From Cenococcum geophilum (taxonomy: Eukaryota), in contig CP158635.1 of assembly GCA_050273025.1 (NCBI GenBank), positions 12,834,001 to 12,898,000 on the forward strand: a stretch of DNA of 64,000 bases, read 5' to 3'. Both the position numbers and the translations under genes were made by a program. The notes beneath the pieces were generated by a model. It saw nothing but the letters and a program-made list of their open reading frames with translations, had not been told where the DNA came from and did no database searches. Positions 21,972-49,194 of the stretch are shown in pieces (position 1 is the stretch's first letter; every line of letters starts with the position of its first letter).

Positions 21972-22155
21972 TGTCACAGCGACTTAGTTAATCGAGGCAC
22001 GAGCGTCGTAAAGAACGTATGCAAGCCTGTACAATTGGAATGTCTATGGACCCGGATATTAAGATAAGAAGTAGAAGGTGGAAAAGGACACGTCTATATA
22101 CATATGCCAAGGCTCAAGCGAGCCCCCTGACTAGATCCGTTACGGTGCCGTAACA
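21972..22155. mobile_element. Solo LTR (184 bp, little RIP)
   Basis: TGTCACAG...CCGTAACA; TSD ATACG; interrupts Gypsy B pol. Confidence 0.92.
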
Positions 22156-23341
22156 ATACGTGCCTAAAAGTATTACAAAAAAATTTATTAAGTTATTCTA
22201 TAAGGGATTAACTTAAGAATATAATAGAGCTATAGGCTTAGTGTTAAGACTCTAAGAGGAGTATATTATTAATAAAATTTAGGGACTAGCAAGATAAGTT
22301 ATAAAAGAATATTTAGATTACTAAAGAAATAAACTAGTAAGGCATAAGCTATATAGAGGGCTATAACCTATTAAAATACCAGAAAGACTATGGGAGGTTA
22401 TATTATAGGACTTTATTATAAAGTTGCTAAAATTAAGAGATCCTATTACTAGATAAGATTATAACACAATTTTAGTAATAGTAGATAAGCTAATAAAGTA
22501 GGGATACTTTATAGCATGCATAAAAGAAATCTTAGCGGAAGATGTCGCTAGAATCTATGTTAAGGAAGTGTTTATAAGATATAGAGTTCTAAGTAAAATT
22601 ATATTAAATAGAGATCTAAGATTTATAGCAGTATTTTAGAAGGTATTCTTAGTAGAATAAGGAGTTTAAGTAGTAACTTCTACTATATATTATCTACAGA
22701 CAGACAGTTAAACGAAAAGATTAAATTAGACACTAGAGCAGTATCTAAGGCACTATATTAATTATATATAAAACAATTAGGTATTATTATTACTAGTTAT
22801 ACAGTTTGCATATAATATAACACCTTAAAAAGGAATGAGAACATTACTATTTAAGGCGAATTACGGATATAAGCTAAAAACATCGTTATTACTATAATAA
22901 GTAAAGAAAACAAGTAGTATAGCTAAGTAAAGAATGGAGATACTAATAAATCTTTATATAAACCTTACGGAAATAGTAAAGGTAGTATAGTAAAGAATGA
23001 AAAAGTACTATAACGTTAAGAGATCTAAGGGACCAAATCTTAAAAAGGGAGATAAAGTATAGCTACTATATAAAAATTTTAAGAGTTAACAACTAAGCAA
23101 GAAATTAGATTATATTAGATTAGGACCTTTTAAAATTAAAAAAAGAATTTTATTAGTTACGTTTAAGTTAAACCTACTAGCTAAAATAAAGATCTACCCT
23201 ATACAGTATATCGCAATATTAGAGCCAGTATATAGGAATATTAAGCCACTAGTTTACAAAGCAGATATATATAAAGGGTAAAAAGAAGATAAATAGTAAG
23301 TTTTAAAAATCGTTAATTATAAAAACGTTAATAATAAAATA

Positions 23342-26300
23342 ATAATAATAATAATAATAATGCATTGCTTAACGTCCGATTTGGATCCCTATTGGGCCCA
23401 CGCGGACTACTCCTTATTTATATATGGGGAGAAAACTCTATTTAAGAAAATAAGAAAACCCCGTAATCTATCTCCCCGCCTTTTAGGACTCGCCTACTTA
23501 ACGCCTATAAGTTACCTATAGTGCTCTACTACCTTACTATTTAACCTTCTTGGGAACCACTGCTGCCGTAATAAGCCTATGGACGTGCTAGTATTATAAA
23601 CTATTACTCTACTACTGTAGAGTTACTAGGGGGCACCTACTGCTCGACCCCTTACCTTCTATTACTATTTCCCTTGTAACCTAGAACTAATTTAGCATAT
23701 TTTAACTAATAAGCCACTAAGTAACCGCCTTAAGGCCTTTTTATATTAAGAGCAGTGTATTATAGTTCTCTATACTAGCTGCTAAGAGCATTATTTCTTA
23801 ATTAGTGCATAGGGGGCATAGCAGTATTATATATTTTGGTGTCTGTCTTAGCTAGCCATATTTATATCTTAGGCTACCTACTAGGACACCTACCTAGTAA
23901 AGCCAATCTTTTAGTCCTATTATTCCTATTCTTAAGAGTATTGCTATTATATTTTCTGCCTTTATTAGGCCTTCTCGGAGCCCTTAGGTATTTACCCCCT
24001 ATAGCGTTAACTATACTATAGCTTAGGTTCGTCTTACCTAAGTCAGCCTCTATACCTTTAACTCCTATTTACCTCTCTAGTATTAGTCTAACCAGTATTA
24101 CATTATAGTAGATAGTTTCCTAGCGTTCTTACGTATTTTACTTTAGCTTCTTTCTTTATCTTACTATTGTTTTTACTAACCTCTTATACGTCTCCCTTCC
24201 TTCTCTATATAGGCCTAGGCCCTAAAGCGGCACTATTCTTCTTCTACTTTCTTTACCTGTTTCTCTAATATCTCTTCCCTACTTTAGGGTTATTGGTTTA
24301 TTCTCCTATAGGGCACCCTAGGGTCCCGCTATAGTTTACTTAGGCGTATCTTAATATACTTTATAACATTAGAGTTATGTTTATTTTGTATTTTTTATAT
24401 TGCAGCGGCTTTAATATATAACTATAGGGGGGGAATATTGGATTCCTTCTTAAGTAGTGCTATAGCCGTTTGCTTATACCTACCTGTAATACTTTAAAGG
24501 CAGGCTATTTAGACCTTTTAAAGTGGTTTAAGGAGTAATTTAGGGGGGCCCTTTTTAGTTTCTCTAATGGCCTAAATACTGGATTTATATATCATGGTTA
24601 GCCAGACGACTGCTGTATATAGTAGGCGTAACCTCTAAAAGTATAGACCCTATATAGAATTAACAATCCTAGATAAAGTAATAAACTGTGCTTAGCCTTT
24701 ACGGGCCGCTTATACCGCATATGCGCTCTACTAGAGCTTACTGTCTACCTATACTCCTAATACCCTTAGGCCCTAAACTGGTTAACCCCTAAAGCCTTAG
24801 ATGCAAATTATATGCTAGAGATCTATAGATTAGTTGCGTTTTCTTATAAAATAGATTAGCTAGTATTTCTTTAGTAAGAATTAGACTCTATAACGTTTTG
24901 CCTATTCTATATAAGTATTATAGGCTTTCTCTAGTATTTTATAATTCTTTGCGGCTATTAGCCCGTATATAATTAGGTTTATGTTATTAACAAAGCCTAT
25001 CCCCTAGGTCGCCTCTTTCTTAAAGGAGTTAAGTAGGTTGCTTATAAAGAAAAGGAAGAGTATAGGCAAGAGGGGTAATCCTTATAGTATTCCTGTTATA
25101 ACTGCAATAAGGGGGCTCTAGTATCCGCTAAAGATTAGTAATATTTCTTTCTAGCTTATAAACCCTTAGATAAATTATATAATCTATTTTAGGAAGCCCT
25201 TTACCCTAAGGATATGCAGGAGACGCTTATAGGGTATATTATTATAGGCACCACTAATGTTTAGGCTAAGCATTAATACTATAAAGTCCTTTCGCATCGC
25301 CTATATAGATTTAATAGTGGCAGCAAGTAGCGTAAGTGCTAATAGTGTTAAGCGGTTCTTTCTTGCCCCTATTTGGCTTTATAGTAGTAGGGCGTGTTCT
25401 TCTACTATATCTACTATGCGTTCCGCTATTACCCTTTTTAAGATCTTACTAAGGGTGTTTTCTAAGGTAATAGGGCGGTAGCTTCCTGGGATTAAGTAAT
25501 CTGCTTTACCTTCTTTTTATAGGATAACCATCGTTATAGATCTTCTAAGTTACGGGTAGTAGCCTATAATAAAGCATGCTTTAGCTATATCTATAAGCTA
25601 AGGTGCTATAAGTGGCCTATAGGTTTTTAGGGCCTTATTTAGAATCCTATCTGGTCCTAGTGCTATATTATTTAAAAGGCGGCTAATAGTTCTAGCCATT
25701 TCCTCTATTATTATGTCGCTGTTAACCCGTAGGCAAGTCACCAGTATTTTGCCCGTAATATTACTAAGGTCTACTAGAGCTAGTTAGGGGAAGAACCTTT
25801 CTATAAGAATCTTTACCTTCTTATTATTATTATTTATGGCCTATAATTCTCCTGCTCTTTATAGGGGTGGTAGGTATAGGTTTTCTACTAGGCACCCTAC
25901 CTTTTTCTTTACCCATTTTACTATAGCCTAAAGGCCCTTATTATGGGGGAGGCTTAGGTTAAAAGTATACTTATTTATAAACCATCTCCAGTTATTTCTT
26001 ACTTCTTTTTTTAGGGTATTCTTTAGCTAGTTTCTTATATCTTTATATTATCTCTCGTATTTAGGGTTATGGCTGCTTATATATTTCCTTCTTACTTATT
26101 ATTAGCTAGTAACTAGAACTGTATATTATATAGACCATATATATCGCGTATAGGGGCCCAGTTTTAAGATTAGGCAGTACTCTTCTAGCCTATTTTTAAT
26201 TGCTATCTAGATCCTTTCTAGTCTTCGGTTAATTTCCTTAGGGGTGGCCAATAAGCCTCGCTTGTTTAGTATTAGGTAGATTTCTTCTAGGTTTTAGAGT

Positions 26301-27479
26301 TATTATTTAACTGTATTAAAGAAACTATCTATCTTAAGCTTCCTTATTACGTATCTTTTTCTATTTAGTTGCGCTTTAGTATCTAAGTCTAGCTATATTT
26401 AGATAGGGATATAGTCTAAGGTAAGTGCCTATTCTTCTTTAGGGTTGTACCTTTTAAGTCTCTGGTATAGGCCTTTATCTATAAATATAAGGTCAATTAT
26501 ACTTCTGGCGGTGCCTTATTGCCATATAATTACTCCTAGGGGGGTAGCTAGCTTAAGGCCCTAGATATCTATAGCTCTTAGTAAACACTTTAACTGTTAA
26601 TCTGCAGCAATATAGATACCCCCCTACCGCGGGTAGTAAAGGTTTATATCTCCTAGTAAGATAGACTCTATACCTTTAGTTTTTAGTAAGCTTATTACCG
26701 ATATAATATTCTCTGTTTATAGGACCCCTTCGACCCTAGGGTTATATATATTAATAATTTATACCGGTCCCCTATATATTTAGATTATTATAACTGCAAT
26801 ATCTGGGTTAACTGCCTGCTATAACTATAAGGATAGGCTAATAGCCTTACTAATTATAAAGCACACGCGTATAGCTGCTTTTGGTTTATATAGGAGCTGG
26901 AATCCTTAGGGGCAGTATATTAATTATATAAAGGTATTATAATACGGTTCTTGTATAGCAAGGATATAATATTTCTCTAGGTCTAAACTGTCTAGTAGGG
27001 GCCTTATAAGGCGGTGGTTTGTGTTACCGTAGTTATACTATATAATAGATAGGTGGCGGACCCCTAGCGAGGGTCCTTTGACTCTCCTTTATTCCTCGCT
27101 TCTTTTATTTCCACTTTCTCTAGGATATTTGGAGCTTCTATCTCTTGTGTCTACACCCTAGTTACTACTTATTTTATATAAAGCTTTCTATTCCCATGTC
27201 TTATATTCCTATTAGCGCTTCTATATCTAAATCTGTTATTATTACCAGTTCTTCCCCTATTTTTACTAGTCGGCTATATACCCTTTATGGGTTGGCTACA
27301 AATATTATATTTGCCGCATTAAGTCTAATTCTTAATTATCCTGGTCTTGAGCCTGCTGTCGCTGTCTATAGGGGTCTTCCTACGGGGCGTCCTCTCCCTT
27401 GTGTCCCCTGTGACCCTTATATCCCTAATTGGTCTAGTGATGTCGCACGGCGTCGCTTCTGGCCCGTTAAGGCTTAGGA
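23342..27479 (-). mobile_element. 5'-truncated LINE (fungal Tad-like), RIP-inactivated
   Basis: (AAT)n tail at ~23338-23361; ~11-12-bp TSD AATAATAAAATA (23330-23341, 27480-27491). Minus strand: APE motifs ILAIQEP ~26950 and LLGDINL ~26650; RT GIL*GLPL (=GIPQGSPL) ~25080 and GFVNN (=GFVDD) ~24990; C-terminal CCHC ~23750-23820. Confidence 0.92.
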
Positions 27480-27514
27480 AATAATAAAATATAGTATAAA
27501 GTAAAGTGGATAGG

Positions 27515-27615
27515 TGTAAGAGTATATATATTAGGTCCCGCCGCGCTTGCGACAAGTTCGCAAGCACTCTCAGTCTTTTTGGCCGTATGGCGACGTGGAG
27601 GCGGGCCACGTTACA
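27515..27615. mobile_element. Very short solo LTR-like insertion (101 bp)
   Basis: TGTAAG...GTTACA; TSD ATAGG; sits in the Gypsy B chromodomain (uninterrupted site at ~55930-55965). Confidence 0.88.
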
Positions 27616-27639
27616 ATAGGCTATAATGAGACTACCTAA

Positions 27640-28337
27640 AAACTACTAGAAAATTTAAAGAACGCTATAGAAAAGGTAGAGGAGTATTAAAAAAGAAAAG
27701 GTTAGGTAGTATTAATAAAGAAGAATTACTAAGGAATAAACCACCTAAAGAGGATATAGGAAGAACAATTGCTAAACTACTTAAAGTTGTTCCCTTCTTT
27801 ATTAAAGGAGAATCCGTTCTTTTATTACTAAGTTTTTATAAACCTTATTTTATAAATTTCTACTCCTTAAAACAAACCTTTTTATAAACTTTCTTAAGAC
27901 GGATTAACTAAGTAGACGCAGTAAGATAAAAATTAAAAGTGCGTTACTAAGCGTTAGCAGCCTCTTTTTTAGCGTTATAAGAACAATAAAGCTTAGCTAG
28001 AGCAACTAAGAGCTTATTATTAAGCTTTATAGTAGTAAATTAAATATAAGACCCTATAATAGATTACTTAGGGAACTTAAAAACTATTTAGAGTAATAAG
28101 GCGTGTATATTTAGTGTTAAAAATAGAACAAATATTATAAGACAATTAAATGTTTACCTTAGTGCACTCTAAATAAGAGGACGGTTATTAAAAGAAAGGA
28201 CTTACTAACGCAATATAAACTAACCCCTCTTTCGCGCAATAAGAATATAGAGATGGCATTATCTTACTAAGGGATAATATTATAGCAACGGTACAGGACC
28301 GACGAGCTGTAGAAGAAGAAGAAGGTACTTTAGGTAT
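27640..28337 (-). pseudogene. Antisense accessory ORF of Gypsy B (Zn2Cys6-like plus coiled coil), RIP-inactivated
   Basis: Homologous to 55970-56652: MPSLYSYCAKEGLVYIALVSPFF**PSSYLECTKVNI*LSYNI, with Tyr (TAT) at four of six Cys positions as expected from RIP of TGT. Confidence 0.7.
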
Positions 28338-28874
28338 AATAAGTAACAATATTAACTAAATTAATTAGATGGATATTATACCTCTAGTAAACAACCTGGA
28401 GATACTAGATATCTTTAAGGACAAAGATAAAGAGAAGGGAGATAGTGTTATAGACGCTTTAAGTATAATATTATAACTACTTAGAGAAGAGTTAGAAGAA
28501 GCTAGTTAGTTAATATAAGTATAGTCTAGGATAGAACCCGTAGAACCATATAACAAGGAATAGTAAGTAGAGTTATATAATATAATCTATATAATCTATA
28601 AGATCCGCTATAAAGCGAATAGAGTGGATAGAGTAGATAGAGCAATAACTTTCTTAGGAGTACGGTTATGTATTTAAGGACCCTTAGTCCCTACCTAGAT
28701 AGTTCCTTTCCTTATAGTAATTCTTAGAATATAATTAGAGTTAATCTATTAGGCAACCACTCCACTAGTTATTATTATGTTGTTAACTTATTTAAATCTA
28801 TACACCTAGCCTATTAACAGGACCTACTGTAGTTTAAGCTATAAGGTTCCGTTATAAAAGGGATAGCGAGAGAA

Positions 28875-30710
28875 TTATATAATTAAATAGTTAGGGGTCT
28901 TGGTGGTTAATACGTGCGTATATACGCACGCGGTCTTTAATAGACTTTAGTAAAATTTAATTAATCTAGTAGAACTTAGCAGAAGTTAATTAAGCTAGTA
29001 AAATTTGGCAAAATTTGGTTAAAGTGTTAGAATTTATCTATTAAGTGTTTTACTAAGACATTCCTACTATAACTAGGCTAGTTCTATTATAACCCCCCCC
29101 TTTTAGCCAAAGGTCTAAAACAATTTAATTTAGTAAAGAATTTATAATTTTATTATATATCGTATTTTCGCATTAGGTAGTAGTATAGAGTTTTACTAGT
29201 TCTAATTATTAAATAGACTAATTAGGATCTTCTATCCCTAGAATAAGAAATCGCTATTAGCTTAGTTAAGGCGGTAAGTAGAACTAATATCTTTATAGAG
29301 GGTCTTAGCAAGGCAAATCTAACTAATTAAATAACTTTAACTAGTGGTTAAAGTTCCTTAATATCTTATATAGTATATAACTATATTATAAACGTTATAA
29401 TATATTTTAAGTTCTTTTTAAATTTAAGCTTCCTACTATTGTGTTTCGTGTATTTATATTAGGTAATAGTTATTTGCCTTTATATTATATCTATCTAGCT
29501 AAAGTAGGCCGTAAAGGATAGTCCTTATAGAATTCTTTACTAGGGAAGGCGTATTAGTTTTAATTTACTTATAAGGTTTCTAGGTTTATATCTTATATCC
29601 CCCCCACTTAATAAAAGGTTTAAATTATTTAGATTATATCTTTTATTATATATTATTAATTAAGTTAATAAAGTAAAAACTGTTACCGTTATTAATAACT
29701 ATAGAAGGTAGTAGTAGCACTTCGCGAGTTATAGGTTTACCCTTTAAGGGTTATAGTAAGTTTACACAAAACGTTAGATATATTTTTATTTTAGTTAATA
29801 GTTTAAGCTTATAAGTATATGGACTTAGTTTCTTCTTAATTTAGTATAGGCCCACAAATTTCTAATTAAGTTTCTTTAAGGGCCGTTGAGTCTTTAGGTT
29901 TCGTATATTTAGGTATACTATATTACTTTTCTTAAAGTCCCACGCGGGAGCTCGTCCTTTATTTACATGCCATTCTTTTACTATTTAAGCGTACATTAAT
30001 TTACTTTATAATAATTCCGTTAACTACTTTATTTAATTAGTAAAGTTATATGCGTTAATTAGCTAAATCCGCTTAATCGTGGGTCCTATTATATTAATTT
30101 TAGGTTATAGTTTAAATCTAAGTTAAAGGTCTTATTTATAGGTTATATAGAACGGCGTTACGCCTATTAATTAATTAATTATATTATTTATAGTAAACTT
30201 AGTTAAAGGTAGCCACTTTTCCTAGTCGTCTTGTAGGTAGGAGTAGTATATTTATAAATATTATTGTCAATCGGAAGTCCGTGCACCGATTATAAGAAAA
30301 GAAGAACTCGTGTGTAGATTAATCTATGAAGAAAAGTGACTATATATACATGAGGTGGGTGGCAAAAAGGTAGACATGAGTCATAGGATGACGACAGAGC
30401 TGACGACGACAAATTGCCACCAGGTAGGCGGTAGGTGACCGTTCGACAATTATTCTATAATCGCGTTTATAATTTCAGTTTAGCTATTTATCTTTAAGTA
30501 AAATATAGTTAAGAGTCGTGTTTATATACTTAATCGTTTATATAGGGCTTGCTAAAAGTCTAAAATAAACTAGCTTCTGCAGTTAGATATTATTAAGTTA
30601 AAAAGTCCGTATAGCTTAAAGACATACTTAATAAAATATTCGGCTACTAATATTATATTAATTAAGTCTATAGGAATTATATATCGCATTTTTATAAGAT
30701 AGTTAATAAC
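28875..30710 (-). mobile_element. Truncated Gypsy D (3' LTR, chromodomain, integrase part)
   Basis: Reverse PPT (poly-C) at ~29093-29100 next to an LTR-like segment (~28875-29090). Minus strand: IKWGGY...*KP chromodomain ~29575-29615; VINYLIKMRYIIP (=VVDRLTKMRHMIP) ~30670-30710. LTR limits approximate. Confidence 0.8.
30265..30448. mobile_element. Solo LTR (184 bp, un-RIPped)
   Basis: TGTCAATCGG...CCGTTCGACA; TSD ATTAT. Confidence 0.92.
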
Positions 30711-32068
30711 TTAACGTATAATTAACTACAAAGGCGCGCGGCATTGAATATGGTCCATTTTTATTTATTGCCGAAGCGAGGAATTTTCTTAGCAAACCCC
30801 ACCAAAAACTCCTCTCTTTAGCAATAATAAAAAATGTATCTCCTACCTAAATGGCTCCGCAAACCAGTGATCTTAATTGTGCTATCTTTTTAACTCATTT
30901 ATAATACGTAGGCATAGCTGACGCTGCGCGCAAGTCTGGAATCCATCGAAAAACAGCTACAAATATTAAGAATCGAGCCGTAGAGATCGGAATTCAACTT
31001 GTAGAGGCTGGCTCTCTTTACAGATACACGAACCCGACGAGTTTAAGTGCGATATTATTCCCTTCCCCTTTTAGCAAGATAACGCTCCTTTATATGCCTC
31101 AAATGGACGAGACGGCGGCTTAAGAAGGGAGGAATACCAATACATGAGCATATAGGCAATTCCCCTAATGTAGACGCTATAGGATCGACTTGGGTGCTGA
31201 TAGGGATAGCGATTATAAAGGACTGGGGGGGGCCGTCAAATATAGAGGGCTTAATGGGAGTTAATACCACAAGATAAGATACGTGCTATGGTTGCTAGAA
31301 TGGCTGCAATTAATACTCTTATAATTGAGTGCGAAGGAGGGAATAAATTTTATGGTTAATGCAGAAGGATTGAGTTATATTAGGTGTACTTTAGTTATAA
31401 TACAAATTTCTATGGGGGAGGGGTACAGCGATGTGCACGACCAGCTTCCACCCCCCCTTAGCGAGAGCTCCAAAATTTTACATTCGGTACGCGCATCCAA
31501 TCTCGCCTGATTTGTACGTAGCGAAGCTGTATGCTTGGCTGCAAGAACCTTGCTTCTGTAGTGTCGTGATCTTCGTTAATATCGTGAGGTTTCCATCCCT
31601 ACGACATCGCCAAATTTCATCGGACATCGTTGTATTCGCGTTTTGGCGGAGGCATAGGCAAAAGAGGGGGCGTATGTCGAGGAAGCGTACGTCAGGCAAG
31701 TTCTGAGTTGCTTCAATTCTGATTCCCCTGGCCAACTGGGGCGATTCTGTAAGCTTTGCAGTGTGTGGGAATTGAACGAGCGACTTGATTGTAAATCTAT
31801 GGAAATCAAGTGGTATAAATACATGAAAGTAGACCCCGAACTCCGAAGCCCATGAGTCATTTGAACCATATCCGAGACATACAAGGGTAGTGCTGACGCA
31901 GGTGAAACAGGGTAATATGCAAGGTCCGGTAGTCGGTTACAGATTCCCTAGGGCAACCGAAAAGGTCCTTGCGTGTAGCCATAGCCATTCGCTACAATTA
32001 CTATGTACAGTTGGTGGCAATCAGGCGAGATTGGATGCGAGTGCCGAATGTACAGCTCTGCACGACTA

Positions 32069-32353
32069 CAGCCTGTACGACCTCCAGTGTCCCCCCCCCC
32101 CGTGTGTACGCGCGCAACACACAGCAATTTCGCTTCGTACGCACTAGAGAATTTCAAGTTTAACTCTTGTAATCAAGCTTAAAAATTAAAGGCTTTGCCT
32201 TTCTTGTGGGCATACGGCTCTTCTAGCAAGCGCACGGCTCTTTTGGCAAGCGCACTGTATCTACGCTGGATAGTGCACTTGACTAGTGATTACCGAAATT
32301 GCTGTGTGTTGCGCGCGCACACGGGGGGGGGACACTGGAGGTCGTACAGGCTG
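32069..32353. mobile_element. Tc1/mariner MITE (285 bp, ~62-bp TIRs)
   Basis: TA-CAGCCTGTACGACCTCCAGTGTCCCC...GGGACACTGGAGGTCGTACAGGCTG-TA. Confidence 0.93.
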
Positions 32354-32834
32354 TACAGTGATGTTTACAACCAGCTTCCACCCCCCAGGCGAGCTACAGA
32401 TTTTTTTTACGCCATTTAATTTCGCTTGATTGCCACCAACTGTATATAGTAATCGTAGCGAAGCCGTATGGCTAAACGCAAGGATCCTTCTGGTTGCGAG
32501 GGGCAATTAAATTAAAGCTATTCAGTACTTACCTTACTTACTAGAGTTTTAATATCAATTCAAAATTGTATTGTTTAATTGTTAATCTACCTTTAATATA
32601 AATCCTCCTACGAAACGTATAGCGGCTTAATTAACGGGTGTGTCTCCTCCCTCTTAACGAACTCGACGGATTATTCTTCCTTCCTCCTTATTATATACGC
32701 CTGCATCTACCCCTATATCTTTAAGGAGCTTCCACTAGGGTACCCTATAATAGTTACTAAGACATAAATATAACACCATTTAACCGGGCTTTACATTAGA
32801 GGAGCTTTAAGAAACGGAAAATTATCTAAAAGCT

Positions 32835-34330
32835 ATAGATAAGGACGATAAGGATAATATAGGGGTGTAGCGTAACTACTTAGCTTCTTAAAGTCAACTT
32901 AGCCGATTAACTTAATTAACGCCGTATAAGTTACCGTATTTAACACAGAATCTTACCTACCTACTGTTAAATATATTACTACCGTAATATTAAGCTACAG
33001 CCTTTTAAATTGCTAGTTAAGCTCCTTAAGCTCCTGTAGTTATTTGGGCCGCTCTACTAGACGCAAATAAGGATAAAGAAGATATAACTCCACTACCTTA
33101 CCTACGTAAAGAGAGTAAGATTAATAATATAGGAAGAGCTAGTAGCGGTATTTTTATTACTTACAATCATAACGTAGTAATTCGATATTTAAAGGAGCTA
33201 GTGTTTACTAAAACTCTTATTAGTGTAAGCCTTTAATTCTATAATCTTTGGCGACTTTAAGTTCACCCTATATATACAAGAGAGCTGCGTCGTTAAGAGC
33301 AAGGTGTTTACATTAAGATTTAACCAATTAAGGCAAAGCTGAATACCTAGCAGATAGGCGTTTTAAATGTTAAGTTCAATATAGATTCTAAAGTCGTAGA
33401 TTAGTAGCAGAAGGTTAATACGCAACTTATTACGTGGGCTCTCCACACTAATAAACGTGGCGTAATTAAGGCTCTCACTATCGACCTCTTAATTGTATAT
33501 ATTCTAGATGGAAATTAACTAGCCGCCTCTTATTCTAGAGGTAGTTCTCACCCATTAATAATTAATTAACTCCGTGGTGAACTTCTAACGCCTTTATAGA
33601 GCTCTAAGCTTAGTATAACGCTTAGTAATACAAAATTAATAAGCTTATAGATTAATCTTATAAGATATTAGCGCTGTAAAAAGAACTACCTAAACGCTAG
33701 TTAGTGTTACGTACTTAATTAGGTAGATATTAAATTAATAAATAAGGACTTGCGGGAGTAGGTAACTGGTATTAAGCGAGGCATTATAAATATTAAGAAT
33801 CCACCTTATAGACTCGCCGTTTGGCTTGCTAAACAAGCGGTAACAGGAGTAAAAAGTAGTAGAAGAGTACGCTAATCTACCTTAGGTAAGAGCTCTACAG
33901 TTAATACTCTAGGCGTAGTTAATTACTTCTACGTTAGCTCTATAGGCTTAATATTAGGTTAGTAAACTACTCCTATACCAGCAAGTTAACAGCCCTTATT
34001 ATCCTTACCTATATTACTAATATACCGCCTATAGGGTGTTAACCGCGCGAAGGATCTAGAGGAGTTCTTTAAGTATTAAAAGAAGAGTGTAGCTAGTAAT
34101 CTTAACTAGGAGGCTGATATTAAAGCTATATATAAAGTTGTATATAATTTAAGGTGGGATTTAGAGCTTTTATATAACAAATCTAATAGAGTAGATCCTG
34201 TTAAGGAACTTATTATAGCTAGTATTAAATTAGGTATCGCAAGACGCCTGTGGAAGGATTTAAAGAAGTGGGCAAATAAGTGCCGTGCTTAGCTTAAGGG
34301 AAGGTTTAAAGATATAGAGGACTTTAGTTA
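32835..34330 (+). pseudogene. Passenger gene of T1, unknown function, RIP-inactivated
   Basis: Long codon-like region homologous to ~36255-37770, ending DPVKELIIASIKLGIARRLWKDLKKWANK. Probable 5' introns; limits approximate. Confidence 0.65.
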
Positions 34331-34519
34331 GTAGATATTAAGCGTAAGGCTCTATAGGCTTTAACTATAGAGTTATAGGATAGATTTTAATAGTAATTCT
34401 TATATAAATTGTATACTCTAGGTAAGAGAATAAAGCCTACGCTTCCTCTATATATATTTATAAAATATCGCGTATATTAAGAATACCACTAAGGCTTAAT
34501 CTTAAAGCTTAATCTTAAC

Positions 34520-35568
34520 TCTTATATTAATTTCTTAATTATACCCGCTATAGCGGAAATGTCCTCTCGCGCTCTTAGCTTTGCTACCTACTTTATCTAT
34601 ATACTAAAGAAGGAACGATTTAAAGCTATTACTAAAGGTTTCTAGATACTCTAGCTAATTAAACTACACTCGCCGGATAAAGGCTTTTAGCTTACCAAAA
34701 AACTCCTTAATTGGATTTAAGTTGGGTAAGTAGAAAGGTAAATATACTAACTTAATACCAAAGGCGTTAAAAAGAGACTTTATCCTTTCTAAATAATAGA
34801 AGCTGGCGTTATCTATAACTACTATAAATCGCTTAGCAGGAAAGCGATTACACTATAGTAGAAGAGTATTTGCTACCCAGAACTTAAAGCCTTCGCCATT
34901 TATTAAGCCTTTATATACTAAAGCTACGAGCACGCCGTTAATTATATACGTAGGTAATATATTAAGCCTCCTCTTAGCCCAATTATATAACGTATACAGG
35001 ACCGGTATAATACTAAAAGGAGCCTAATTAGTCTTCCGTATACCTGCCTTTAAATCTATACCTAACTTATTTACAAATATAAGCTAATTGGCGGTATACT
35101 ATAATATAATAGCGAAATATATGTCGCGATCGTAAGCGCTTTATTTAAGGGCTACTTGGGAACACTTCTTTATATAAGCTACTCTTTAAGCTCTATCTAT
35201 AGAGGATCTAATTAGCTTACCCACTTCCTTATCTAGCTAGCTAAGTAGAGCTCTTAAAATATTATATAGCGGCTAACTATAAGATTAAACGTGTTGTAGA
35301 TTAACCACTGTATCTTATTGCTAAAGAGAGTTGGCTTCTTATCTAGCTGTATTAATATTACTATAAGCATCCAATTGCTTAGTAAAAACTACTCCCCCTT
35401 ACTGTTTAAAGGCGCCTGAGTTAATCTAAATATACGCAAGTTCCTCTTAATCGCGGTAATTAATCGGGGTGTATAATTAGCAGCTAAGGCATACTCTGCT
35501 TAAGTTACTCTAAGTTAAAGAAGATCCTTAATTAGGGCGTGCTAATATAGGCCTATTTGCGGAGCCAT
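34520..35568 (-). pseudogene. IS630/Tc1 DD34E transposase of T1
   Basis: ATG GCT CCG at 35568; FVNKLG (=FVDESG) ~35060-35077; VIDNASFYY...LPFYLPNLNPIKE (=DNASFHH...YSPDLNPIEE) with 34 residues between D and E. Confidence 0.92.
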
Positions 35569-36254
35569 ATTACGAATATAGTACGGGTAAAAACCTTACG
35601 ATATTTAATAAAGATCACGACACTACGGAGGGAAGCCAATCGCGAATAGCTTCAAGTTCGCCAGGATTAGGGGTTCTTACAGCCAAGCATACGGCTTCGC
35701 TACGATTACTATATATAGTTGGTGGAAATCAAGCGAAATTAAATAGCGTAAAAAAAATCTGCAGCTCGCCTTGGGGGGGGTGGAAGCTAATAAACATCAC
35801 TGTAGCTTTACCCCCCCTTTGGCGAGATTTCAAATTCGCTACGCGCATCTAATCTCGCTTAGTTGCCACCAACCGTATATAGTAACTGTAGTGAGCGCCT
35901 ATGCCTGCACGCAAGGACCGTCCTAGTTGTAGGGACAATTGAATTAAAGCTATATAGAACTTGCCTAACCTACTAAAGCCGTAATATCCACCTAAAATCG
36001 TGTTGTACTATTATTAATTTGCCCTTAATATACATCCTTCTTTAAAACGCGCAGCGGCTTAATTAATAGACAAGAGTCCTCCTTCTTAATAAACTTAATA
36101 AAGCCACCTTCCTCCCTCCTTATTACCTAGACCCCTACTGCTATTAAGCTATTACCTAAATATAATATAATAGCCGCTAAGACATAAATACAATACCGTT
36201 TAGCTGGGTTTTACATTAGAGGAGCTTAAGGAAATAAATAACAATCTAGAAGCC

Positions 36255-37770
36255 ATAGCGGAGGCCACTAAGAAGGAGGTAGAAGGTTAGCGTGTATACT
36301 GCCAAAGTTAGCTTAGTAGATTGCCTTAGTTAAAATCTTATAAGTCACCATATTTAACATAGGAGCCGCTAGTATTAATACCACGATATTAAGCTATGCC
36401 CTCTTAGGAAGTTACTCGTACTCCTTAGGCTCCTCTAATTACTTACTTAATATTAGCCTCTCGCTTACCCCCAAGGGCTTACTTATACTTATTTAGTGAG
36501 TATAAGGATAAGCTAATTCCGCCGCCGCCTCGCCTGCGTTTTAAGAGTAAGATTGGTAATATAGAGAGGAGAAGTAGCGGCGTGTTTATTACTTATAATT
36601 ATAATATAGTAATTTAATACCTAAAGGATTCGCCTTTTACTAAGACTCTTATTAGTATAAGCCTTCAGCTTTATAATCTTTGGCGACTTTAAGTCTTTCC
36701 TATTTATAAGAGAGAGCTATATTGTTAAGAGTAAGGTATTCGCATTAAGCTTTAGCTAATTAAGGCTAAAGTTAATACTTAGTACGCAGGCGTTTATGAC
36801 GTTAAATTTAGTATTATAGAAGTTAAGGTTATAGCCTAGTGGCAGAAGATTAATACCCAGCTTATATTATAGGCGAAGTATACTAATAAAAGTGGCGCTA
36901 TTAAGGCTCTTACCGTTAACCTCTTAATTATATATGCCCTAGCTGTAAATTAACTAGCGGCCTTTCACTCTAGAGTTAGCTTTTATCCATTAATGCTTAA
37001 TTAACTCTATAGTGAAGTTTTAACGCCCTTATAGATTTTGGAGCGGAGCTTAACGCCTTATATATCTCCTGTTAGTAATACTATAAGATTATGGGTTAAG
37101 CTTACTAGATATTAGCGTTATAAAAAGCGCTACCTAAATATTAATTGGTGCTACGTTTTTAGCTAGGTAGACGTTAAATTAATAGATAAGGACTTAAGAG
37201 AATGGGTAACTAGTATCTAGTAAGGTATTGCGAATATTTAGAATCTACCTTATAGGCTTGCTACGCGGCTTACTAAGAGAGCAGTAAAGGGAGGAAATAA
37301 TAGTAGAAGAGTACGCCAATTAGCCTCCGGTAAGAGCTCTACTACTAGTACTCTAGGCGTTATTAACCACTTTTATATTAGTTCTATAAGCCTAGTACTA
37401 AATTAGTAAACTCTTATACCAATAAGCCAACTAACGTTATTATCCTTACCTATATTACTAATACGCCGCCTATATAGTATTAACCGCGCGAAGGATTTAG
37501 AGGAGTTTTTTACGTATTAGAAGTAGAGTGTATCTAGTAATCTTAACTAGGAGGCTGACTTTAAGGCAGTATACAAAATTGTCCACAATTTAAGATAGGA
37601 TTTAGAGCTCCTATATAATAAATCTAATAGCGCTAATCCTATTAAGGAGCTTATAAAGGCTAGTGTTAAATTAGGTATTATAAGGCGGCTATAAAAGGAT
37701 TTAAAGAAGTGGGTAAATAAGCGTTATATATAGCTTAAAGGAAGTTTCTAAGATATAGATAATTAGTAGA
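36255..37770 (+). pseudogene. Passenger gene of T2 (homolog of the T1 passenger)
   Basis: Colinear with 32835-34330; limits approximate. Confidence 0.65.
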
Positions 37771-37899
37771 ATATAAGGTATCTCTATTACTGCTAGCGCC
37801 TCTATAGTAATAAAGACACCCTATATATATAAGAGATTAAAGCCTTTAGTGTATTTACAAGTATTATATACAATTAAAAAAACGCTACTAAAAATTGAT

Positions 37900-38955
37900 C
37901 TTCCTTATACCAAAAACCTTAACAATTGTACCTACTATGTTAGAAATGTCCTCTTGCACTTTTGCTCTTGCTACTAACCTTATCTATACACTAAAGAAGA
38001 AAGGCTTTAAAGCTATAGTTAAAGCTTTTAGGGTGCTCTACCTAAGAGAACTACTTCCGCTAAATAAAAGCTTTTAGCTCTCTAAAAAACTCTTTAATTA
38101 GATTTAAATTAGGTAAGTATATAGGCAAATATATAAGCTTAACGCTAAAGGCGTTAAAGAGAGCCTATATCCTCTCTAAGTAATGGAAGCTGGCGTTATC
38201 TATAATAACTACTAATTGCTTAGTAGGAAAGCGATTACACCGTAGTAGAAAAGTATTTACCACCTAGAACTTAAAGCCTTTGCTATTTATTAAGCCTTTA
38301 TATACCGAAGCTACTAGTATACCGTTAATTATATACATAGGCAGTATATTAAGCCTCGTCTTACCCCAATTATATAGCGTATAAGAAACTAGTGTAATAC
38401 TATAAGGAGCCTAGCCGGTCTTCCGTACGCCCGTCTTTAAATCTGCACCTAACTTATCTATAAATACTAGTTAATTAGCGGTATACTGTAATATAATGGC
38501 GAAATATATGTCGCGATTATAAGCGCTACGCTTAAGGGCTACCTAGTAACACTACTTTGCGTAAGCTACTCTTTAAGCTCTATAACTAGAGGATCTAATT
38601 AGCTTACCTACTTTCTTATCTAGCTAGCTAAATAGAGCTCTTAAAATATTGTATAGCGGCTTACTATAACGTTAAATACGTTATAGATTAACCACTCCAT
38701 CTTATTGCTAAAGAGAGTTAGCTTTTCCTCTAGCTATATTAGTACCACTATAATTATCCAATTACTTATTATAAACTGGCCACCTTTACCGTTTAAAGGC
38801 GCCTAAGTTAATCTAAGTATCCACAAGTTCCTTTTAATTAATGTAATTAAGCAAACTATATAACTAGCGATGAAGGCACACTCTGTTCGGGTTACTCTAA
38901 GTTAAAGAAGATCCTTAATTAGGGCGTGCTAGTATAGGCCCATTCGCGGAGCTAT
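37900..38955 (-). pseudogene. IS630/Tc1 DD34E transposase of T2
   Basis: FIDKLG (=DESG) ~38450-38465; IDNASFHY ~38180-38205; colinear with the T1 transposase. Confidence 0.9.
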
Positions 38956-39235
38956 ATTGCGAATATAGTACGGGTGGAAACCTCACGGTATTTAACAAAG
39001 ATCATAACACTGTAGAGAAAAGCTGATTGCGAATAGCTTTAAGTCCTTTAAAAGCAAGGTTCTTACAGCCAAGCATAGGCGCTCGCTACAGTTACTATGT
39101 ACAGTTAGTGGCAACCAAGCGAGATTGGATGCGCGTAGCGAATTTGAAATCTCGCACAGAGCTGTAAAATTTTGGAGCTCTCCGCTTCCAATTTCGCTTA
39201 AAAACGGACCATTTTCAATGCCGCGCGCCTTCTTA

Positions 39236-40753: not shown

Positions 40754-42620
40754 TTACAAGATGTACTTGAAATCTGGATGGTAATCAAGCAATTCCTCAT
40801 AGGTCTTGTTCCTATTGGGGTTCTCCCGACCCTCGTTTCTCCACTTCATTACACTCTCCTCTTTCTTTCGATTTGCCGTCTTCATCCATAGGTAATTTGT
40901 CACTGTTGCGCCTATGGCCAAGACCAAAGAACCCAATAACGTCCCGTGGCCAGCCAGAAACCGAGGTGGATCTCGGTACACCTGCGTGCCGACGATACCA
41001 CAGGCATTCCCAGTCACCTGAGCCATTGCCCAAGCTGTGGAGCGCTTGGTGTAGCCACCGTGGTTAATGTTGATCCACGCAACGTTGAGGATGCCTCCTG
41101 GGAATATCCCTAATGTTACTAAACAGGCTCCGGCAATTAAGGCCACCTTATTAGTCGTGGCCATGAGAATAATGTATCCAATGCCGGAGGTCGCCAAGCA
41201 GAGCAAAAGTACTGGGCCTTTGGAGTTAACGCGGTCGGAAAGTAGACACACAGTCACGAGAGACACTGTTGCGACACCGTAGGGAATCATTGAGAAGAGT
41301 TGTGTTTCAACTGCCACTACCATTAGAGAACTGGAAAGTGTGACGGAGAATGTGATGGAAGAGAGGAGGCACTTACGAGGGCCAAATCCGAAAGCAAGAA
41401 TGAACGTAGGCAAAAAACAATTGATTGATGTAATACCCAGAACAACAGCTCCATGGATCACCGCCGTGAAATAAGCCTTAGGATCTCTGAGCCCAGCCCA
41501 GATCTGCTTACGCACGATCCTGGCATTGGGTTGATTGTTCGCTGGCGAAACACCGTTAGTCCTCAAGTTGTCACTCATTACTAGGTCACTAACCTTCAAT
41601 CGTCCTCTGCACTGCAATCTTAATTTCCTCTCGATTGAAGATCCAGTTTGCCTTCTTTAGTTGCTCCGGAAACGGAGGTAAGAAGAAAAACAAGAAGACC
41701 CCAACTACAAGTGACGGAGCCCCTTCAGTAATAAAAAGCCACTGCCATGATAGAAGTTTACTCGTGTCCCTTAGATTTTTATCGACACCATACGCGATAA
41801 GTCCACTTAAGCAGCCCGAAATCGTAGCCGGTGTGTAATACATCGCTGTCGCCCTACTCGTCAGCTATCATCACTTCCTACGCCGTCCCGTGGGGACGGG
41901 CGGGGTTGCCTCACCGGCTCTAGTGGCTACCTCACTCCTCTTATACCAGATGCTAAAGTACAGGAACGCCACCTGCACGAACGCCTGTCCAGAGCCATTG
42001 AGTACACGTAGGACGAGGATTGCGGCGTATTTCTTGGTGGCTGCGAGACACAGAGTGCAGATGCCGAAGAAGATGATAGCGGTGCCAATCATTTTTGGGG
42101 GAGAAATGACGCGCATGGCGAGATTGGAGGGGAGCATGAAAGTTAGGTAGCCGACGTCTTTGAGGGCAAATATTAGATTAGATCGTCCTTAAGGTGGCAC
42201 AGTAAAAGAAAATGGAAAACAATTAGAGAAAAGAAGATAAAATTAAAGAAATAGCATAGGAGGACATACAAAACATTGACAAACAGTTGAAAAACTGCTT
42301 GTCTGTTAGATGCAGGTCCTTCTGCATACCCATAACTCTCGCATTCCCAATGTTATTCCGATCCTGATCGCAGTTACTCATCATTCCCTTAAGTCACGCA
42401 AAAAGGCCACAATTGAAAACGGAATGCGGGCAAATACCAAGTAAGCGATAAAGAAACTGCAAGCAAGCATGGGTACGATGGTAAAATCCATCTTCAGTAG
42501 TAATCGCTGTGCCTGCTCGGACCTGGAACGTGTGACATCGTTGTCCGCGGCCACCGTTGTTGTAGCAGCAGTTGGAGGAAGATTTTCCGCATTTTCGATG
42601 TTGTAACCATGTCTGTCCAT
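40754..42620 (-). CDS. MFS transporter, anion:cation symporter / allantoate permease (Dal5/Tna1-like) family, 497 aa, 6 exons
   Basis: Exons 42620-42438, 42363-42270, 42157-41915, 41845-41594, 41541-41377, 41310-40754 total 1494 nt in one frame with GT-AG introns. Motifs YLDRNNIGNA, WYKRSEVATR, WQWLFITEG, HPDFKYIL. Confidence 0.93.
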
Positions 42621-43071: not shown

Positions 43072-45039
43072 ATGTCTTCCGCAGGCGATCTAAGATCCCC
43101 AGAGCCTAATACACGATTCCCCACTTCCGACACGAACGTTCCTCTGTCTTCAACTCTTCACACCCCTTGGCTGTGTGGCGCCATCGTGATACTCAATAGC
43201 CTTATTACGTCTGCCTTACCGGCGCCAGCAAGCCGAATCTTCGAAGTTGCACTATGTCGACGCTACTATAACTCTCACGGACCGGATAAGTTTCCGCCGG
43301 GCAGCAATGTCCCAGAGACATTCTGCAAGATAGAGGACATCCAGATCGCTGTTGTTTCTACGATTTCGACCATCACAGTGACTACAACGCTTGCTGGTAT
43401 GACACGCAGCGATCTAATCAATGATTCACTCATCCTACAGAAGTCATATTGACCCTCACTCTAGAACTTGTAGTGCAAATCCCAATGGGTGTTTTGGCTG
43501 ACCAGAAGGGCCGGAGACTGGCGCTGGCGCTCAATATCACTGGTATTCTATGCTATTGGTCCTGGGTGGCTCTTTCGGGCAAGTTGTTCTACGGAGCCCT
43601 GCTTAGTAGACTAGGCAGCTAACCCTAGTTAAGGACTATGTTCCGACCTATTTCCTTTCTGGTCGGTCCATTTCACACCGCTATTCTTTCTTATTGGAGG
43701 CGGGCCAAGAGTCACTAGCGCCCTTTTATTCGCAACACTGGCTGACGTTGTCGTACCCGAGAAAAGGTGAATGACACTTTGTGGTTCGGCTGGACAGCGT
43801 TGTTGACGTCTCATAGGACTGCCTACTTCTCATATATAGAGGCAGCGGGATACATCGCTGACATGGTGTCTCCCGCAATTGGGTCATTCTTGATGTCCTT
43901 CCATCTTGCTATCCCTTTCATAACTTTAATCGCTTGCTATGCGCTCTCCTACGTTCCTGTACTTTTCATCGCCGAAGCTCAGCCTCGGTCAACACCTGAG
44001 CATCCAGAGACCTTCGAAGGTGCCGAGGATGAGTTGTTGCTTGGAGACAACATAGAAACCGAAGGCGATAGCGATAACGACGAACCAGCCAAAGATGTCA
44101 ATAAAGGACATGGATTTTTTAAGCATAGCTTTGCAAGGGTGTATTTGCACCTCTTAGAGACATGGCGGATGGTTGCGAATGATAAGAACATCATACTTAG
44201 TTTAGCCGTGTTCTTTCTGCTCGTGGCGTCGCGGAGCTCAGCGAACTTGCTCTTACAGTATGTATCAAAGAGATACGCTTGGACTATAGCCCAGGTGAAT
44301 AATTTTATATTCAACTCCATAAATAGTGAGAATGCTAATAAGACGTAGGCCGGCTATCTATTTTCGCTGAAAGGCGCAATCTCTGCCCTCCTTTTCCTCG
44401 TGCTTATCCCTAGAATCAGCATCGTCATGATTAAGCATACTGCACTTGAACCGCACCAAATAAGTTTAATCATAGCCCAAATGAGCATATTTGTTCTCGC
44501 TCTCGGCTCCGCCATCATCGGATTTGCACCCAATATTTGGGTCTTGATATTTGGTTAGTTCTCGCGTTTTCCGTTCCTCTAAGTTTCACTGCTTGCCTGT
44601 TTCAAAATTCCTTGCATTACTCATTGCCACCATACCCCATGTTGACCTTGACCATAGGGTTTGTTATCCTTGCACTCGGTTCTGGCGCCGGCATTACTCT
44701 GAAATCATTTCTCTCTGCCACCATCAGCAACGGCTACTATGCCCGCCTCTATTCTGTGCTCGGTATCGCTGAGAGCCTGGGTATTTTGCTAGGAATGCCA
44801 TTATTGGCTGAAACATACTCGTGGGGGTTAAAGCACGGATCTTGGGCATTAGGTACCCCGTATCTCGTGTGCGCTGTAAGTATACTCGGATACGACTTGG
44901 ATTGACAGCATACACTGATAAGGTTTAGATACTATACACGCTTGTAAGTATGGTCGTGTGCTGCTTTAAGTGCCAACATGGTTCTCTTTTCCTTTTAATG
45001 GTTAGAATGCTGCATAATCGTTCCGGCTCTAGCTATTAG
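43072..45039 (+). CDS. MFS transporter (SLC46-like / UstT-like efflux type), ~527 aa, 7 exons
   Basis: Exons 43072-43396, 43465-43578, 43634-43766, 43817-44294, 44349-44553, 44658-44875, 44929-45039 total 1584 nt in frame. Loop CRRYY...ETFCKIEDIQ, motif A GVLADQKGRR, IGGGPRV. Alternative in-frame ATG at 43060. Subfamily call from memory. Confidence 0.88.
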
Positions 45040-46478: not shown

Positions 46479-48604
46479 TGTTACGGCACTAACCTATCTT
46501 ATACTGTTTCCTACTATTAGCTAGCCCACCACTAGCGCCTTAGCGGCTGGCCCTACTATTTATATACGATACCCCTTTCGCCTCTTCTCCTCTTTATACC
46601 ACAACGTAGTTATTTAGTCTACTTTACTATAGCACCGTAACAGTTTATGGTATCTCCTCTTGCGCCCCATCGCGATCTTTATCTTCTTAGTTTACCGCCT
46701 CTATTTATAGTCTCTGTTTTTTCTAAACAACCATTTTAATACCTTTAGTATACCTTCGCAGATTATAGAATTACGATCACTACCTAACTATATATTAAAT
46801 AACCTTTATTTCCTTAATTTTTATTAAAACGCGTTAAATAATCTCTAATAATAGCTATTATGGCGTTAACTTACCCGAAGAAGTACGAGGATAACATTAA
46901 CCTAGAGATATAGAACACCAATATAACTAACCTTAAAGATGTTAATTAGCAAGACTTAAACGGATTCTTATTATACCGTATAGTACACTATAAAGACAGC
47001 GAATATGACAACACTATGCTATAGTACTGTGTAAGGGAGGACTTTACTAAATGGATAAAGGGAATATAGACTCCTATAAAGAAGGATATTATATAGGACT
47101 TCCGTAACTTCTTATAGGAGTATAAAGTGTTTATACGTATAGATAGGGGTACTATTAGAGATAATATTTAGGAGTAGGTTATTAACGTAAAAGAAGAGCA
47201 TAAATAAACTCTATAAGTGACTAAGCACCAACTACGCACTATAAGGAAGCTTAACTTACAATAAAATCTAAGTAATATACCTTTAGAGACGAATATACCT
47301 CCGCCTTTAACTCCCCTATATCTAATCTAACCTATAACTTTAACTTTAGATACTATACCCTAACGAGAGCAGATATAGGATCCTATTGCTTTATAATTTA
47401 ATAACCTTTAGACTCCACTAACCAGACCTATGTCACCACTACAGCCTATAATATAACTCCTACCTCCTCTATCTTAACCTTAAATTAGAGGCATTTTAAA
47501 ATTACTTACAGAGCTTATAAAGCTCTATTTAGATTAGGAGAAGAAGTTTAGCAGGGAATTATATAATATTCTTAATTTAAAATTACATATCTTCTATAAC
47601 TATTACTAAAAGGTAGAAATAGAGTCTAATTAATACCACAACGCCTATTCTGTTATACTTAGGGGCCAAACTAGTACCTTCTATTATAATTATTTAGCAG
47701 GAAAAGGATATAACTTTAACCGCATAATATATAAGTTAAGATACTACTTTAAAACAGAAGATAATAAGTAGTAGTATATATTAGAATAGAGAGAGACTAC
47801 CTTTTTAAGGATTATTACTATAAACCTAGGTATTCCTTAGCTTAATTGTCTTTAAAAGCTCTTTAACTAACTTTAGATAATTTAGCGTAGTCTATCTAAA
47901 TTATATTAAGAGGATTTAGCCTACGTGACTAAGTTATTAACGCATGCTAAGGTGTTAAAGAATATAACCTTGCTCTCTTTAATCCTATAAATACTTATAA
48001 AGGAGTATATGCCTAATTAAGATCTTCTATTAGTACCGCTTTACGCTCTTAAAAAGTATAGTAATTTAATACCTAACTCTAACCTACTTTAATTAACCCG
48101 CCTAACTAATATAATCATAACTAAATATATAGTGGCCGTGGTAGGCAGTACGGTAGAGGGTATAATTAATATTAATTATAAGGCAATTATAAAGGTCCTT
48201 ATAAAGGTTTATTTTAAAGTAATTGCTAAAAGAAGTGCTATATTTATAAGAAGTTAAATTGCTAGATAACTAGGTATTCTCTTAATAAGCAAAAGGAGGT
48301 ATATAATAAGTTTCGCCAAAGTATAAGAAATGTTGGAAATTATAAGGTTATTATAGCTTACTTTTAAAGCTTTCTAGTTTAATATAAAGGTGTAAAAGAT
48401 CTTAAGGGTAAGGTTAATAAGGCCAAATAGCTCCTTATAGATATGGAAATTAAGGACTACTCCCCTAACTAATACGTTACTAAGTATAGTAAGGTAAATG
48501 GTATATAAACCGTCGCTATTCTTAATAACCAATCTACGCTCCATTTTATTACGAAGTTAGATATCTTTAATAAGCTAAAGGAGAGTTCCGCGTTCTCCTT
48601 TAAT
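46479..48604 (+). mobile_element. Copia-like LTR retrotransposon, 5' LTR and gag, interrupted by Gypsy E
   Basis: LTR TGTTACGGC...CCGTAACA 46479-46642, then GTTTATGG (PBS-like). ORF from ATG 46860 with RIP stops; zinc knuckle KKCYIYKKLNC*ITRY at ~48231-48277. Copia assignment rests on the PBS and gag type; pol order not visible. Confidence 0.7.
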
Positions 48605-49194
48605 TGTTATAGACGCTTTAAGTACGATGTTACAACTACTTAGAGAAGAGTCGGAAGAAGCTAGTTAGTTAATATAAGCACGGTCTAGAATGGAACCCGT
48701 GGAACTATATAACAAGGAATGGTAAGCAGAGTTACGTGATGTAATCTATGTGATCTATATAATCTGTAAGATCTATTATAAAGCGAATAGAGTAAATAGA
48801 GCAGATAGAGCGACAACTTTCTTAGAAGTACGGTTATGTATTTAAAGACCCTTAGTCCCTACCTAAATAGTTCCTTCCTTATAGTAATTTTTAGAATATA
48901 ATTAGAGTTAATCTATTAGGCAACCACTCCACTAGTTATTATTATTATTATTAACTTATCTATATTTATACACCTAGCCTATTAATAGGACCTACCGTAG
49001 TATAAGCTATAAGGTTCCGTTATATAATTACTACCTAGTTACGGTCCAATAAGTTAAACAATATGCCACCAAAAGCAGCCACTATAACGCCATTAACGGC
49101 GGCAACTACTTTAAGATTAGGTAACGATACTAATATAGCAGACACTAACTTATAACAACCTGTAATAGTAGGGTAGTTATAAGAAATAGTTAAC

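Follow-up and report, generated by a model that had tools for sequence, protein, structure and literature searches.

A nested array of Tc1-type transposons in Cenococcum geophilum and an apparent preference of its clade for the ends of resident elements

The window analysed here, a stretch of 64,000 nt from the fungus Cenococcum geophilum (assembly GCA_050273025.1, contig CP158635.1, positions 12,834,001-12,898,000 of the forward strand), contains at 30.7-39.3 kb an array of nested Tc1-type elements, designated T1 to T4 together with a miniature inverted-repeat transposable element (MITE) designated M. Comparison with independent loci of the same clade indicates that a preference of these transposons for the ends of resident Tc1-type elements is very probably real. 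The array itself is best explained by ordinary cut-and-paste insertions that entered TA sites one after another, and a molecular cause of the targeting can be proposed. Tc1/mariner elements have been regarded as having little target preference beyond TA.

The preference was measured on metagenome contigs of this clade, drawn from few metagenomes and not from the C. geophilum assembly. A 33-letter motif of the inner terminal inverted repeat (TIR), which has five matches in the window while 100 shuffles gave no match, was used to scan the contigs and recovered at least 126 stretches, of which 125 loci with 150 motif hits were used; loci were selected by the element, and the flank was ignored. 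An intact TA-bounded terminus accompanied 92 of the 150 hits, and removal of 13 repeated and 2 short flanks left 77 ends. An end was scored as targeted when a related end started no more than 20 bp outside its TA. A near-perfect palindrome (L057/L058), possibly a fold-back artefact, was left out of this seeded test.

Related ends lay within this distance at 14 of the 77 ends, compared with 193 of 15,583 background TAs beyond 150 bp, a figure inflated by the hosts' own far ends, and 42 of 11,110 beyond 1 kb, where the density of related ends is flat at 0.3-0.4%. A stricter count, from which one repeated site and one reciprocal view were removed and in which one case within a MITE interior was not counted, gave 12 of 75 ends (16%) at 10 loci against 0.4-1.4% of background TA sites, corresponding to a 13-42-fold enrichment (binomial P 2e-10 to 2e-16, assuming independence). 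Enrichment in related TIRs over other TA sites, which a sequence-only reading of the window had put forward as a check, is thus present in the metagenome loci. All 14 calls persisted without library entries from the same locus, and shuffled flanks produced 0 matches at the threshold. A six-base target weight matrix built from 63 untargeted sites was almost flat: weighting lifted the background from 1.2% to 1.4%, and targeted sites scored 0.5-2.4 against a mean of 1.0.

Ends and interiors were compared in 110 loci, after removal of 15 that overlapped others or shared a site; this set overstates the overall rate but allows a fair comparison of ends with interiors. The TA supply amounted to 2413 sites in end zones, 7690 in full-length T interiors (~3170 at the density expected before repeat-induced point mutation, RIP) and 35,844 in other DNA. 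Among 137 termini of T elements, T4 and a MITE family designated Z, 38 were in end zones and 98 elsewhere, and the remaining 1, although scored as interior, reads as inner TIR; by hand count, the 39 end-zone termini represent 30 junctions at 26 loci, of which L006, L054 and L095 are possibly related. No Tc1-type junction was found in 49 kb of full-length T interiors, and the end-zone insertions ranged from directly abutting to ~140 bp inside. The interior insertions seen were a solo long terminal repeat (LTR) in T3 and a 146-bp piece in L031, neither of which has Tc1-type ends. End association amounted to 10/41, 7/37 and 3/18 in individual subfamilies; a single specialist subfamily is ruled out, as all the larger ones show it.

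The junctions at these loci resemble those of the window in several respects. Both duplications are visible at L012, L070 and L111, three elements stand on shared TAs at L061, four to five MITEs are nested at L070, and chains of elements occur at L011, L022 and L111. Partners belong to different subfamilies or families in all readable junctions but one, T-T pairs being 74-88% identical over long overlaps; one same-subfamily, near-abutting pair was seen (L034). The excess of adjacent and nested copies among related elements comes from independent events with distinct junction sequences, as in MITE multimers. Furthermore, of the 58 motif hits that have no intact terminus, 19 (at 15 loci) run directly into another TIR, a pattern that loss of the centre of stacked inverted ends would produce.

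In the window, every TA at which the sequence-only reading had placed the nested array is present with element termini adjoining (Table 1), and the TIRs become continuous once the inserts are removed, with arms of 117 bp for T1 (89% identical), 103 bp for T2 (86%), 45 bp for the MITE (89%) and 38 bp for T4 (89%). TA stands on both sides of T1, T2, the MITE and T4, and on the left side only of T3. The positions claimed for T2, in a TA of T3's right TIR, and for the MITE and T1, side by side on one TA in T2's left TIR, hold; the order in which these last two arrived is not readable from the sequence, nor did any other isolate reveal it. The placement of T3 within T4 is upheld by colinearity with a relative of T4 in L038 but lacks its pair of duplications, the right TA of T3 having been deleted along with its outer ~37 bp. 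Likewise, the count of five stands for Tc1-type elements but missed a sixth insertion, the 194-bp solo LTR. Position 31019 is not the start of a further element within T4, since T4 remains colinear with L038 across it. The right TIR of T2 is without the 24-25 bp block that carries the target TA in its left TIR.

Table 1. Coordinates of the nested array and its duplications in the window
Feature	Coordinates	Strand	Basis or remark
TA duplication left of T4	30727..30728		Partner 39234-39235; L038 relative TA-flanked, L098 the empty site
T4 left part, non-autonomous Tc1-like, truncated transposase 5' end (ATG 30851)	30729..31423	+	Colinear with L038 element
T3 main part, ~500-bp MITE of T1/T2 clade, orientation opposite to T1/T2	31426..32050	+	Left TA 31424-25
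Solo LTR (TG...CA), 194 bp, in T3 interior	31748..31941		5-bp duplication 31743-47 / 31942-46, boundaries read directly
TA duplication of T2 in T3 right TIR, ~54 bp from T3's original end	32051..32052		Partner 39165-66
Outer 14 bp of T2 left TIR	32053..32066		TIR alignment
Target TA at T2 positions 15-16	32067..32068		Copies 32354-55, 35803-04; most likely CpA>TpA
285-bp MITE, M family, abutting T1	32069..32353		TIR arms
T1, 3447-bp two-gene Tc1, RIP-killed	32356..35802	-	ATG 35568, DDE_3 ~34655-34969
Part of second, convergent open reading frame of T1	33021..34370	+	Accessory gene, 19 relatives
T2 main part, 3376-bp two-gene Tc1 including stub	35805..39164	-	DDE_3 ~38048-38470
Remainder of T3 right TIR	39167..39182	+	Outer ~37 bp and right TA deleted
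T4 right end, 51 bp including 38-bp TIR	39183..39233	+	TIR alignment, L038 comparison

All four Tc1-type insertions of the array lie within ~55 bp of a host end, and TIR identity is 62-69% among T1, T2 and T3 and 35-56% with M and T4. Only 21 of the 549 TAs of T2 (3.8%; ~9% by the un-RIPped estimate) lie in its terminal 130-bp zones, so the window alone is only suggestive of more than chance, and the strong evidence comes from the other loci. In sequencing run X1, which may come from the source sample, 0.67 of the sampled words of the window are present, and its contigs include a 549-bp piece identical to 30811-31359, a T3-like contig without T2 (joint 32000->39116), a T4-like contig joining 31409 to 39190, the letters between them not being known, and a further end-to-end junction, 39156->32346. 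At the solo LTR, contigs show a joint 31742->31942 and mixed loose ends at 31748. No contig bridging the TA junctions was found among the 32 pieces listed from four runs, with 18,540 more beyond these, and the array is not read-confirmed.

RIP has left a clear signature in T1 and T2, whose interiors have TA/AT ratios of 1.75-1.82 (T1 1.75) and (CA+TG)/(AC+GT) ratios of 0.44-0.45, while the latter ratio is ~1.2 at their ends versus 0.44 inside. The two elements are 76% identical (2534 of 3316 aligned bases), and the 782 differences comprise 537 transitions and 245 transversions, a RIP-type bias. The target position in T2 reads CA in 29 of 32 T2-type ends and in 34 of 40 other clade ends, and TA in the remainder. 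The proposal that a RIP-type C>T change made the target is therefore supported, T2's own family giving better support than the comparison with T3 on which it had been based. All three copies of the target dinucleotide in the window are TA, although CA sites close by in the MITE have not changed, so the simplest reading is that the CpA>TpA change preceded the T1 and MITE insertions. Minor-state TAs of this CpA>TpA type, one of which is carried by 11 of the 77 ends, were reused as targets at L046 and L111, in both cases by family Z, in opposite orientations and in different hosts.

T1 and T2 belong to the Tc1 (DD34E) group of the IS630-Tc1-mariner superfamily. Read on the minus strand with X at stop codons, they match DDE_3 (PF13358) at E 8.9e-12 (T1) and 3.2e-14 (T2), and the transposase of L068 does so at E 3.9e-29; the triad, with 34 residues from the second D to the E, was counted by hand on translations including that of L068, and the codon for the catalytic E of T1 is RIP-altered. 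T2 is ~90% identical to near-complete copies in L003, L034, L052 and L080. The L068 transposase region (1-1244) is nearly un-RIPped (GC 0.48), has an intron after the N-terminal part and sits within the TIR of a MITE. Its product is ~50% identical to Tc1-like transposases of Aspergillus, Penicillium and Talaromyces, and the RIP-damaged T2 domain, when compared with longer proteins, gave no match. The N-terminal helix-turn-helix has no Pfam match in the RIP-damaged T1 and T2, relatives carrying PF13592/PF13565, and T4 has a weak HTH_29 match (E 0.043) below the cut-off.

Each of T1 and T2 also carries a second open reading frame (ORF), on the plus strand. This accessory ORF has 19 relatives at E<=0.001 among 1.84 billion representatives, and no Pfam family reached the cut-off in the 10 relatives scanned. 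Its nearest Atlas clusters are unnamed ascomycete proteins, and an Atlas match to a SAM domain (0.89), with recognition below threshold, serves as a lead only. T1 and T2 are RIP-killed two-gene elements of 3.4 kb, whereas the MITE, T3 and T4 are non-autonomous. An intact 495-bp MITE in L070 shares 419 of 443 aligned bases (95%) with rebuilt T3. Rebuilt T4, which is not RIP-skewed (TA/AT 1.0), aligns colinearly at 66% with a 743-bp relative in L038 that has TA on its flanks, and the same place is empty in L098. T3 lies ~52 bp from the right end of T4 and is hence end-proximal; the two sequences align poorly at this point, and T4 may have a small deletion. Relatives of the MITE M in L019 and L039 have themselves been hit by T-clade elements.

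Family Z consists of TA-duplicating MITEs of ~146 bp with ~43-bp TIRs (L012 3118-3309; also L041, L046, L093, L111 and L015). Seven of its 10 termini lie in or against the ends of other elements, and no autonomous partner was found among the loci examined. A repeat resembling the subterminal region of T4 occurs near several T-clade ends (L001, L004, L012, L065 and L075), and in L065 two ends stand ~125 bp apart inside it.

The window, a repeat island of fungal DNA strongly marked by RIP, consists almost entirely of RIP-mutated repeats and is gene-like only at ~39.2-45 kb; the array lies at the edge of this island, ~1.5 kb from the host ORF at 40754-41578. T4 starts ~16 bp past the right edge of a high-copy repeat (30449-30711) that has sharp boundaries in all four read runs. 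To the right of the array, in un-RIPped DNA, lie the host ORFs 40754-41578 (-), which has no Pfam match, and 43863-44348 (+); both are membrane-protein-like and resemble transporter fragments. A RIP-damaged retroelement occupies 2798-7541, with an RVT_1 match (E 1.5e-6) just under the cut-off and split direct repeats (2798-2903/7211-7316 and 7066-7212/7395-7541), a layout like that of Ngaro/DIRS elements; a downstream frame, without a Pfam match, resembles a tyrosine recombinase. It is enclosed by a 213-bp LTR pair (2504-2716 and 13210-13422), and a 72-bp inverted match of 13212-13283, at the LTR start, to 13638-13709 may reflect a fold-back rearrangement at the LTR end. An un-RIPped 650-bp element at 1811-2462, with 142-bp TIRs (96%) and internal direct repeats, is not related to the T clade. 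A large RIP-damaged element whose LTR-like repeats measure ~590 bp is present in several copies at 14434-28882 and 48600-64000, and tandem arrays lie within these regions at 17283-17573 and 57948-60172.

Under the stepwise account of the array, T4 would have come first, followed by T3 near the right end of T4 and by T2 in the right TIR of T3; RIP of T2 would then have made a new TA on which T1 and the MITE stacked, and the solo LTR would have entered T3 separately. For the targeting itself, we give roughly an even chance to recruitment of incoming elements by transposase bound to resident ends, for which Sleeping Beauty and IS30 offer precedents. The transposase would bind resident TIRs, even those of copies that are dead or non-autonomous and of other subfamilies sharing a common outer binding motif, and would recruit the incoming transpososome to the nearest TA. 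This TA may belong to the resident's own duplication, which gives abutting pairs, or may lie within the resident's long TIR. Inverted ends stacked in this way would be prone to central deletion, leaving fused or clipped ends such as that of T3. A dedicated end-homing pathway, in which the transposase or the conserved accessory protein would recognise resident Tc1-type ends of several families and send about one-sixth of insertions there, so that dead relatives would be safe places to land while RIP supplied TA targets, is conceivable but unlikely.

Several observations weigh against targeting or against recruitment as its cause. Most insertions are untargeted, 93 of 125 T termini lying in unrelated DNA, and two insertions went into MITE interiors or subterminal DNA (L039 and L086). 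The host is unambiguous and full-length at few junctions (T2 in the window, L065 and L022), the order of arrival is not readable in abutting pairs, and the loci are a motif-selected sample from few metagenomes and not from this genome. Enrichment is seen at TIRs, where transposase-binding sites would lie, but family Z shares little TIR sequence with the T clade and yet joins in both directions, with T inserted into Z at L015, which is harder to reconcile with shared binding sites. Finally, TIRs are much less RIP-mutated than interiors, which suits open DNA equally well.

This last point belongs to the main rival, which is less probable: TIRs and MITEs, being GC-richer and lightly RIPped, would form probably unmethylated, nucleosome-poor, promoter-like islands favoured by TA-inserting transposons, with no transposase recruitment. 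The (CA+TG)/(AC+GT) ratios of T1 and T2 (1.2 at ends, 0.44 in interiors) and the reciprocal targeting with the dissimilar family Z agree with such passive access. However, untargeted insertions are not shifted to un-RIPped DNA, since 44% of 36 flanks are RIP-skewed both beside the element and at 1 kb; moreover, many matches lie at the duplication's very TA, and both non-Tc1 inserts seen, albeit two cases only, went to interiors. Ends could also be joined without fresh insertion, by transposase-mediated adjacent deletion or alternative-end transposition between neighbours, an improbable route to which the fused TIRs among terminus-less hits (19/58, 15 loci), the missing right tip of T3 and several junctions visible on one side only would conform. 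It is countered by the clean two-sided TA duplications, three in the window plus those at L012, L070 and L111, and by the rarity of neighbours at kilobase distance as substrate (0.3-0.4% beyond 1 kb), and a preference for ends would still be needed.

The remaining explanations carry little weight. The sequence-only reading had offered TIR-directed targeting or local hopping; targeting is borne out by the 12 of 75 ends and the 30 end-zone junctions, whereas re-insertion of an element in or next to its own donor copy is largely refuted, and very improbable, because the partners are of different subfamilies (window TIRs 35-69% identical) and no kilobase-scale halo extends past the hosts' own far ends, even if the clustering is very tight and one same-subfamily pair nearly abuts (L034). 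A primary sequence preference, by which TIRs would carry a favoured context around TA, fails on the nearly flat weight matrix and the use of many different TAs across the TIR, and can be given only slight probability. Chance nesting in DNA that tolerates repeats, or a faulty assembly, would fit a window made almost wholly of RIP-mutated repeats in which none of the 32 listed contig pieces bridges the TA junctions. This is scarcely probable, since exact duplications restore family consensus ends, each copy has private mutations, both the 549-bp identical piece and 0.67 of the sampled words occur in run X1, and general tolerance cannot leave interiors with zero insertions.

If ~16% of insertions indeed go to the ends of relatives and none to interiors, weak self-tethering of the Sleeping Beauty type can be a main natural force. 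End-targeting, if true, would explain TIR arrays, fused ends and clipped elements in RIP genomes, would undermine nesting-based dating that assumes random insertion, and would give transposon tools a natural targeting mechanism that can be put to the test. Although it is a host defence, RIP appears to make new landing sites in the targeted ends.

Fungal Tc1-like elements share with T1 and T2 the TA duplication, TIRs and DD34E triad; the elements described here differ in their 3.4-kb size, second convergent ORF, ~120-bp TIRs and strong end-targeting. In the available parts of earlier reports, nested copies of Trem elements are stated to be absent in Paracoccidioides (PMC2836289), no obvious insertion preference is described in Mycosphaerella graminicola (PMC4522978), and single adjacent or nested MITEs are recorded in Epichloe (PMC3227409). 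In the wheat pathogen Pyrenophora tritici-repentis, the accessible description of a two-ORF Tc1/Mariner 'transduplication' family (Manning et al. 2013, PMC3538342) likewise has a second ORF between Tc1/Mariner TIRs and many copies, and makes no mention of target choice. That ORF carries Osmo_CC (PF08946); PF08946 was not found in the X-read frames of T1 and T2 or in 10 accessory relatives, a weak negative since the frames are damaged or partial. A literature search without subscription papers found no fungal Tc1 elements for which end-targeting had been quantified, which, absence from print not being established, points to an end-seeking preference not yet described for this group.

In plants, the multimer-forming MITE families of rice and maize are of the Tourist type (PIF/Harbinger). 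As far as the consulted portion of a later source conveys (Jiang and Wessler 2001, per PMC5172404), more than 10% of rice MITEs adjoin or nest in other MITEs through independent insertions, and some families are targeted by many. This rate resembles the 16% found here; in the present clade, full-length Tc1 elements of autonomous size are both inserts and hosts, and interiors are avoided. The P element has a hotspot inside its own TIR, which the literature search did not confirm, and IS231 and IS4321 target the TIRs of other transposons.

Sleeping Beauty, like the present clade a Tc1 element, shows an excess of insertions no more than 100 bp from its own binding motif, and recruitment by chromatin-bound transposase has been modelled, according to the available part of that study (PMC4786924). 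Its enrichment is ~2-fold, at chance motifs and in an experimental human system, whereas that found here is 13-42-fold, at natural TIRs and across subfamilies. Among bacterial insertion sequences, the DDE element IS30 inserts next to resident inverted repeats (IRs), and the resulting end-to-end junctions with a 2-bp spacer drive further rearrangement; targeted insertion by IS911 is cited in the same source, as far as it was available (PMC9333248). As described there, IS30 transposes by copy-out-paste-in and targets the same element only, in fixed orientation, in contrast to the cut-and-paste insertion with TA duplication of the present clade, at sites spread over ~140 bp. An end-homing pathway, if true, would be the eukaryotic cut-and-paste counterpart of bacterial IR-targeting, and the end preference of this clade is stronger and more end-specific than the eukaryotic precedents compared here, as far as the available parts of their reports describe them.

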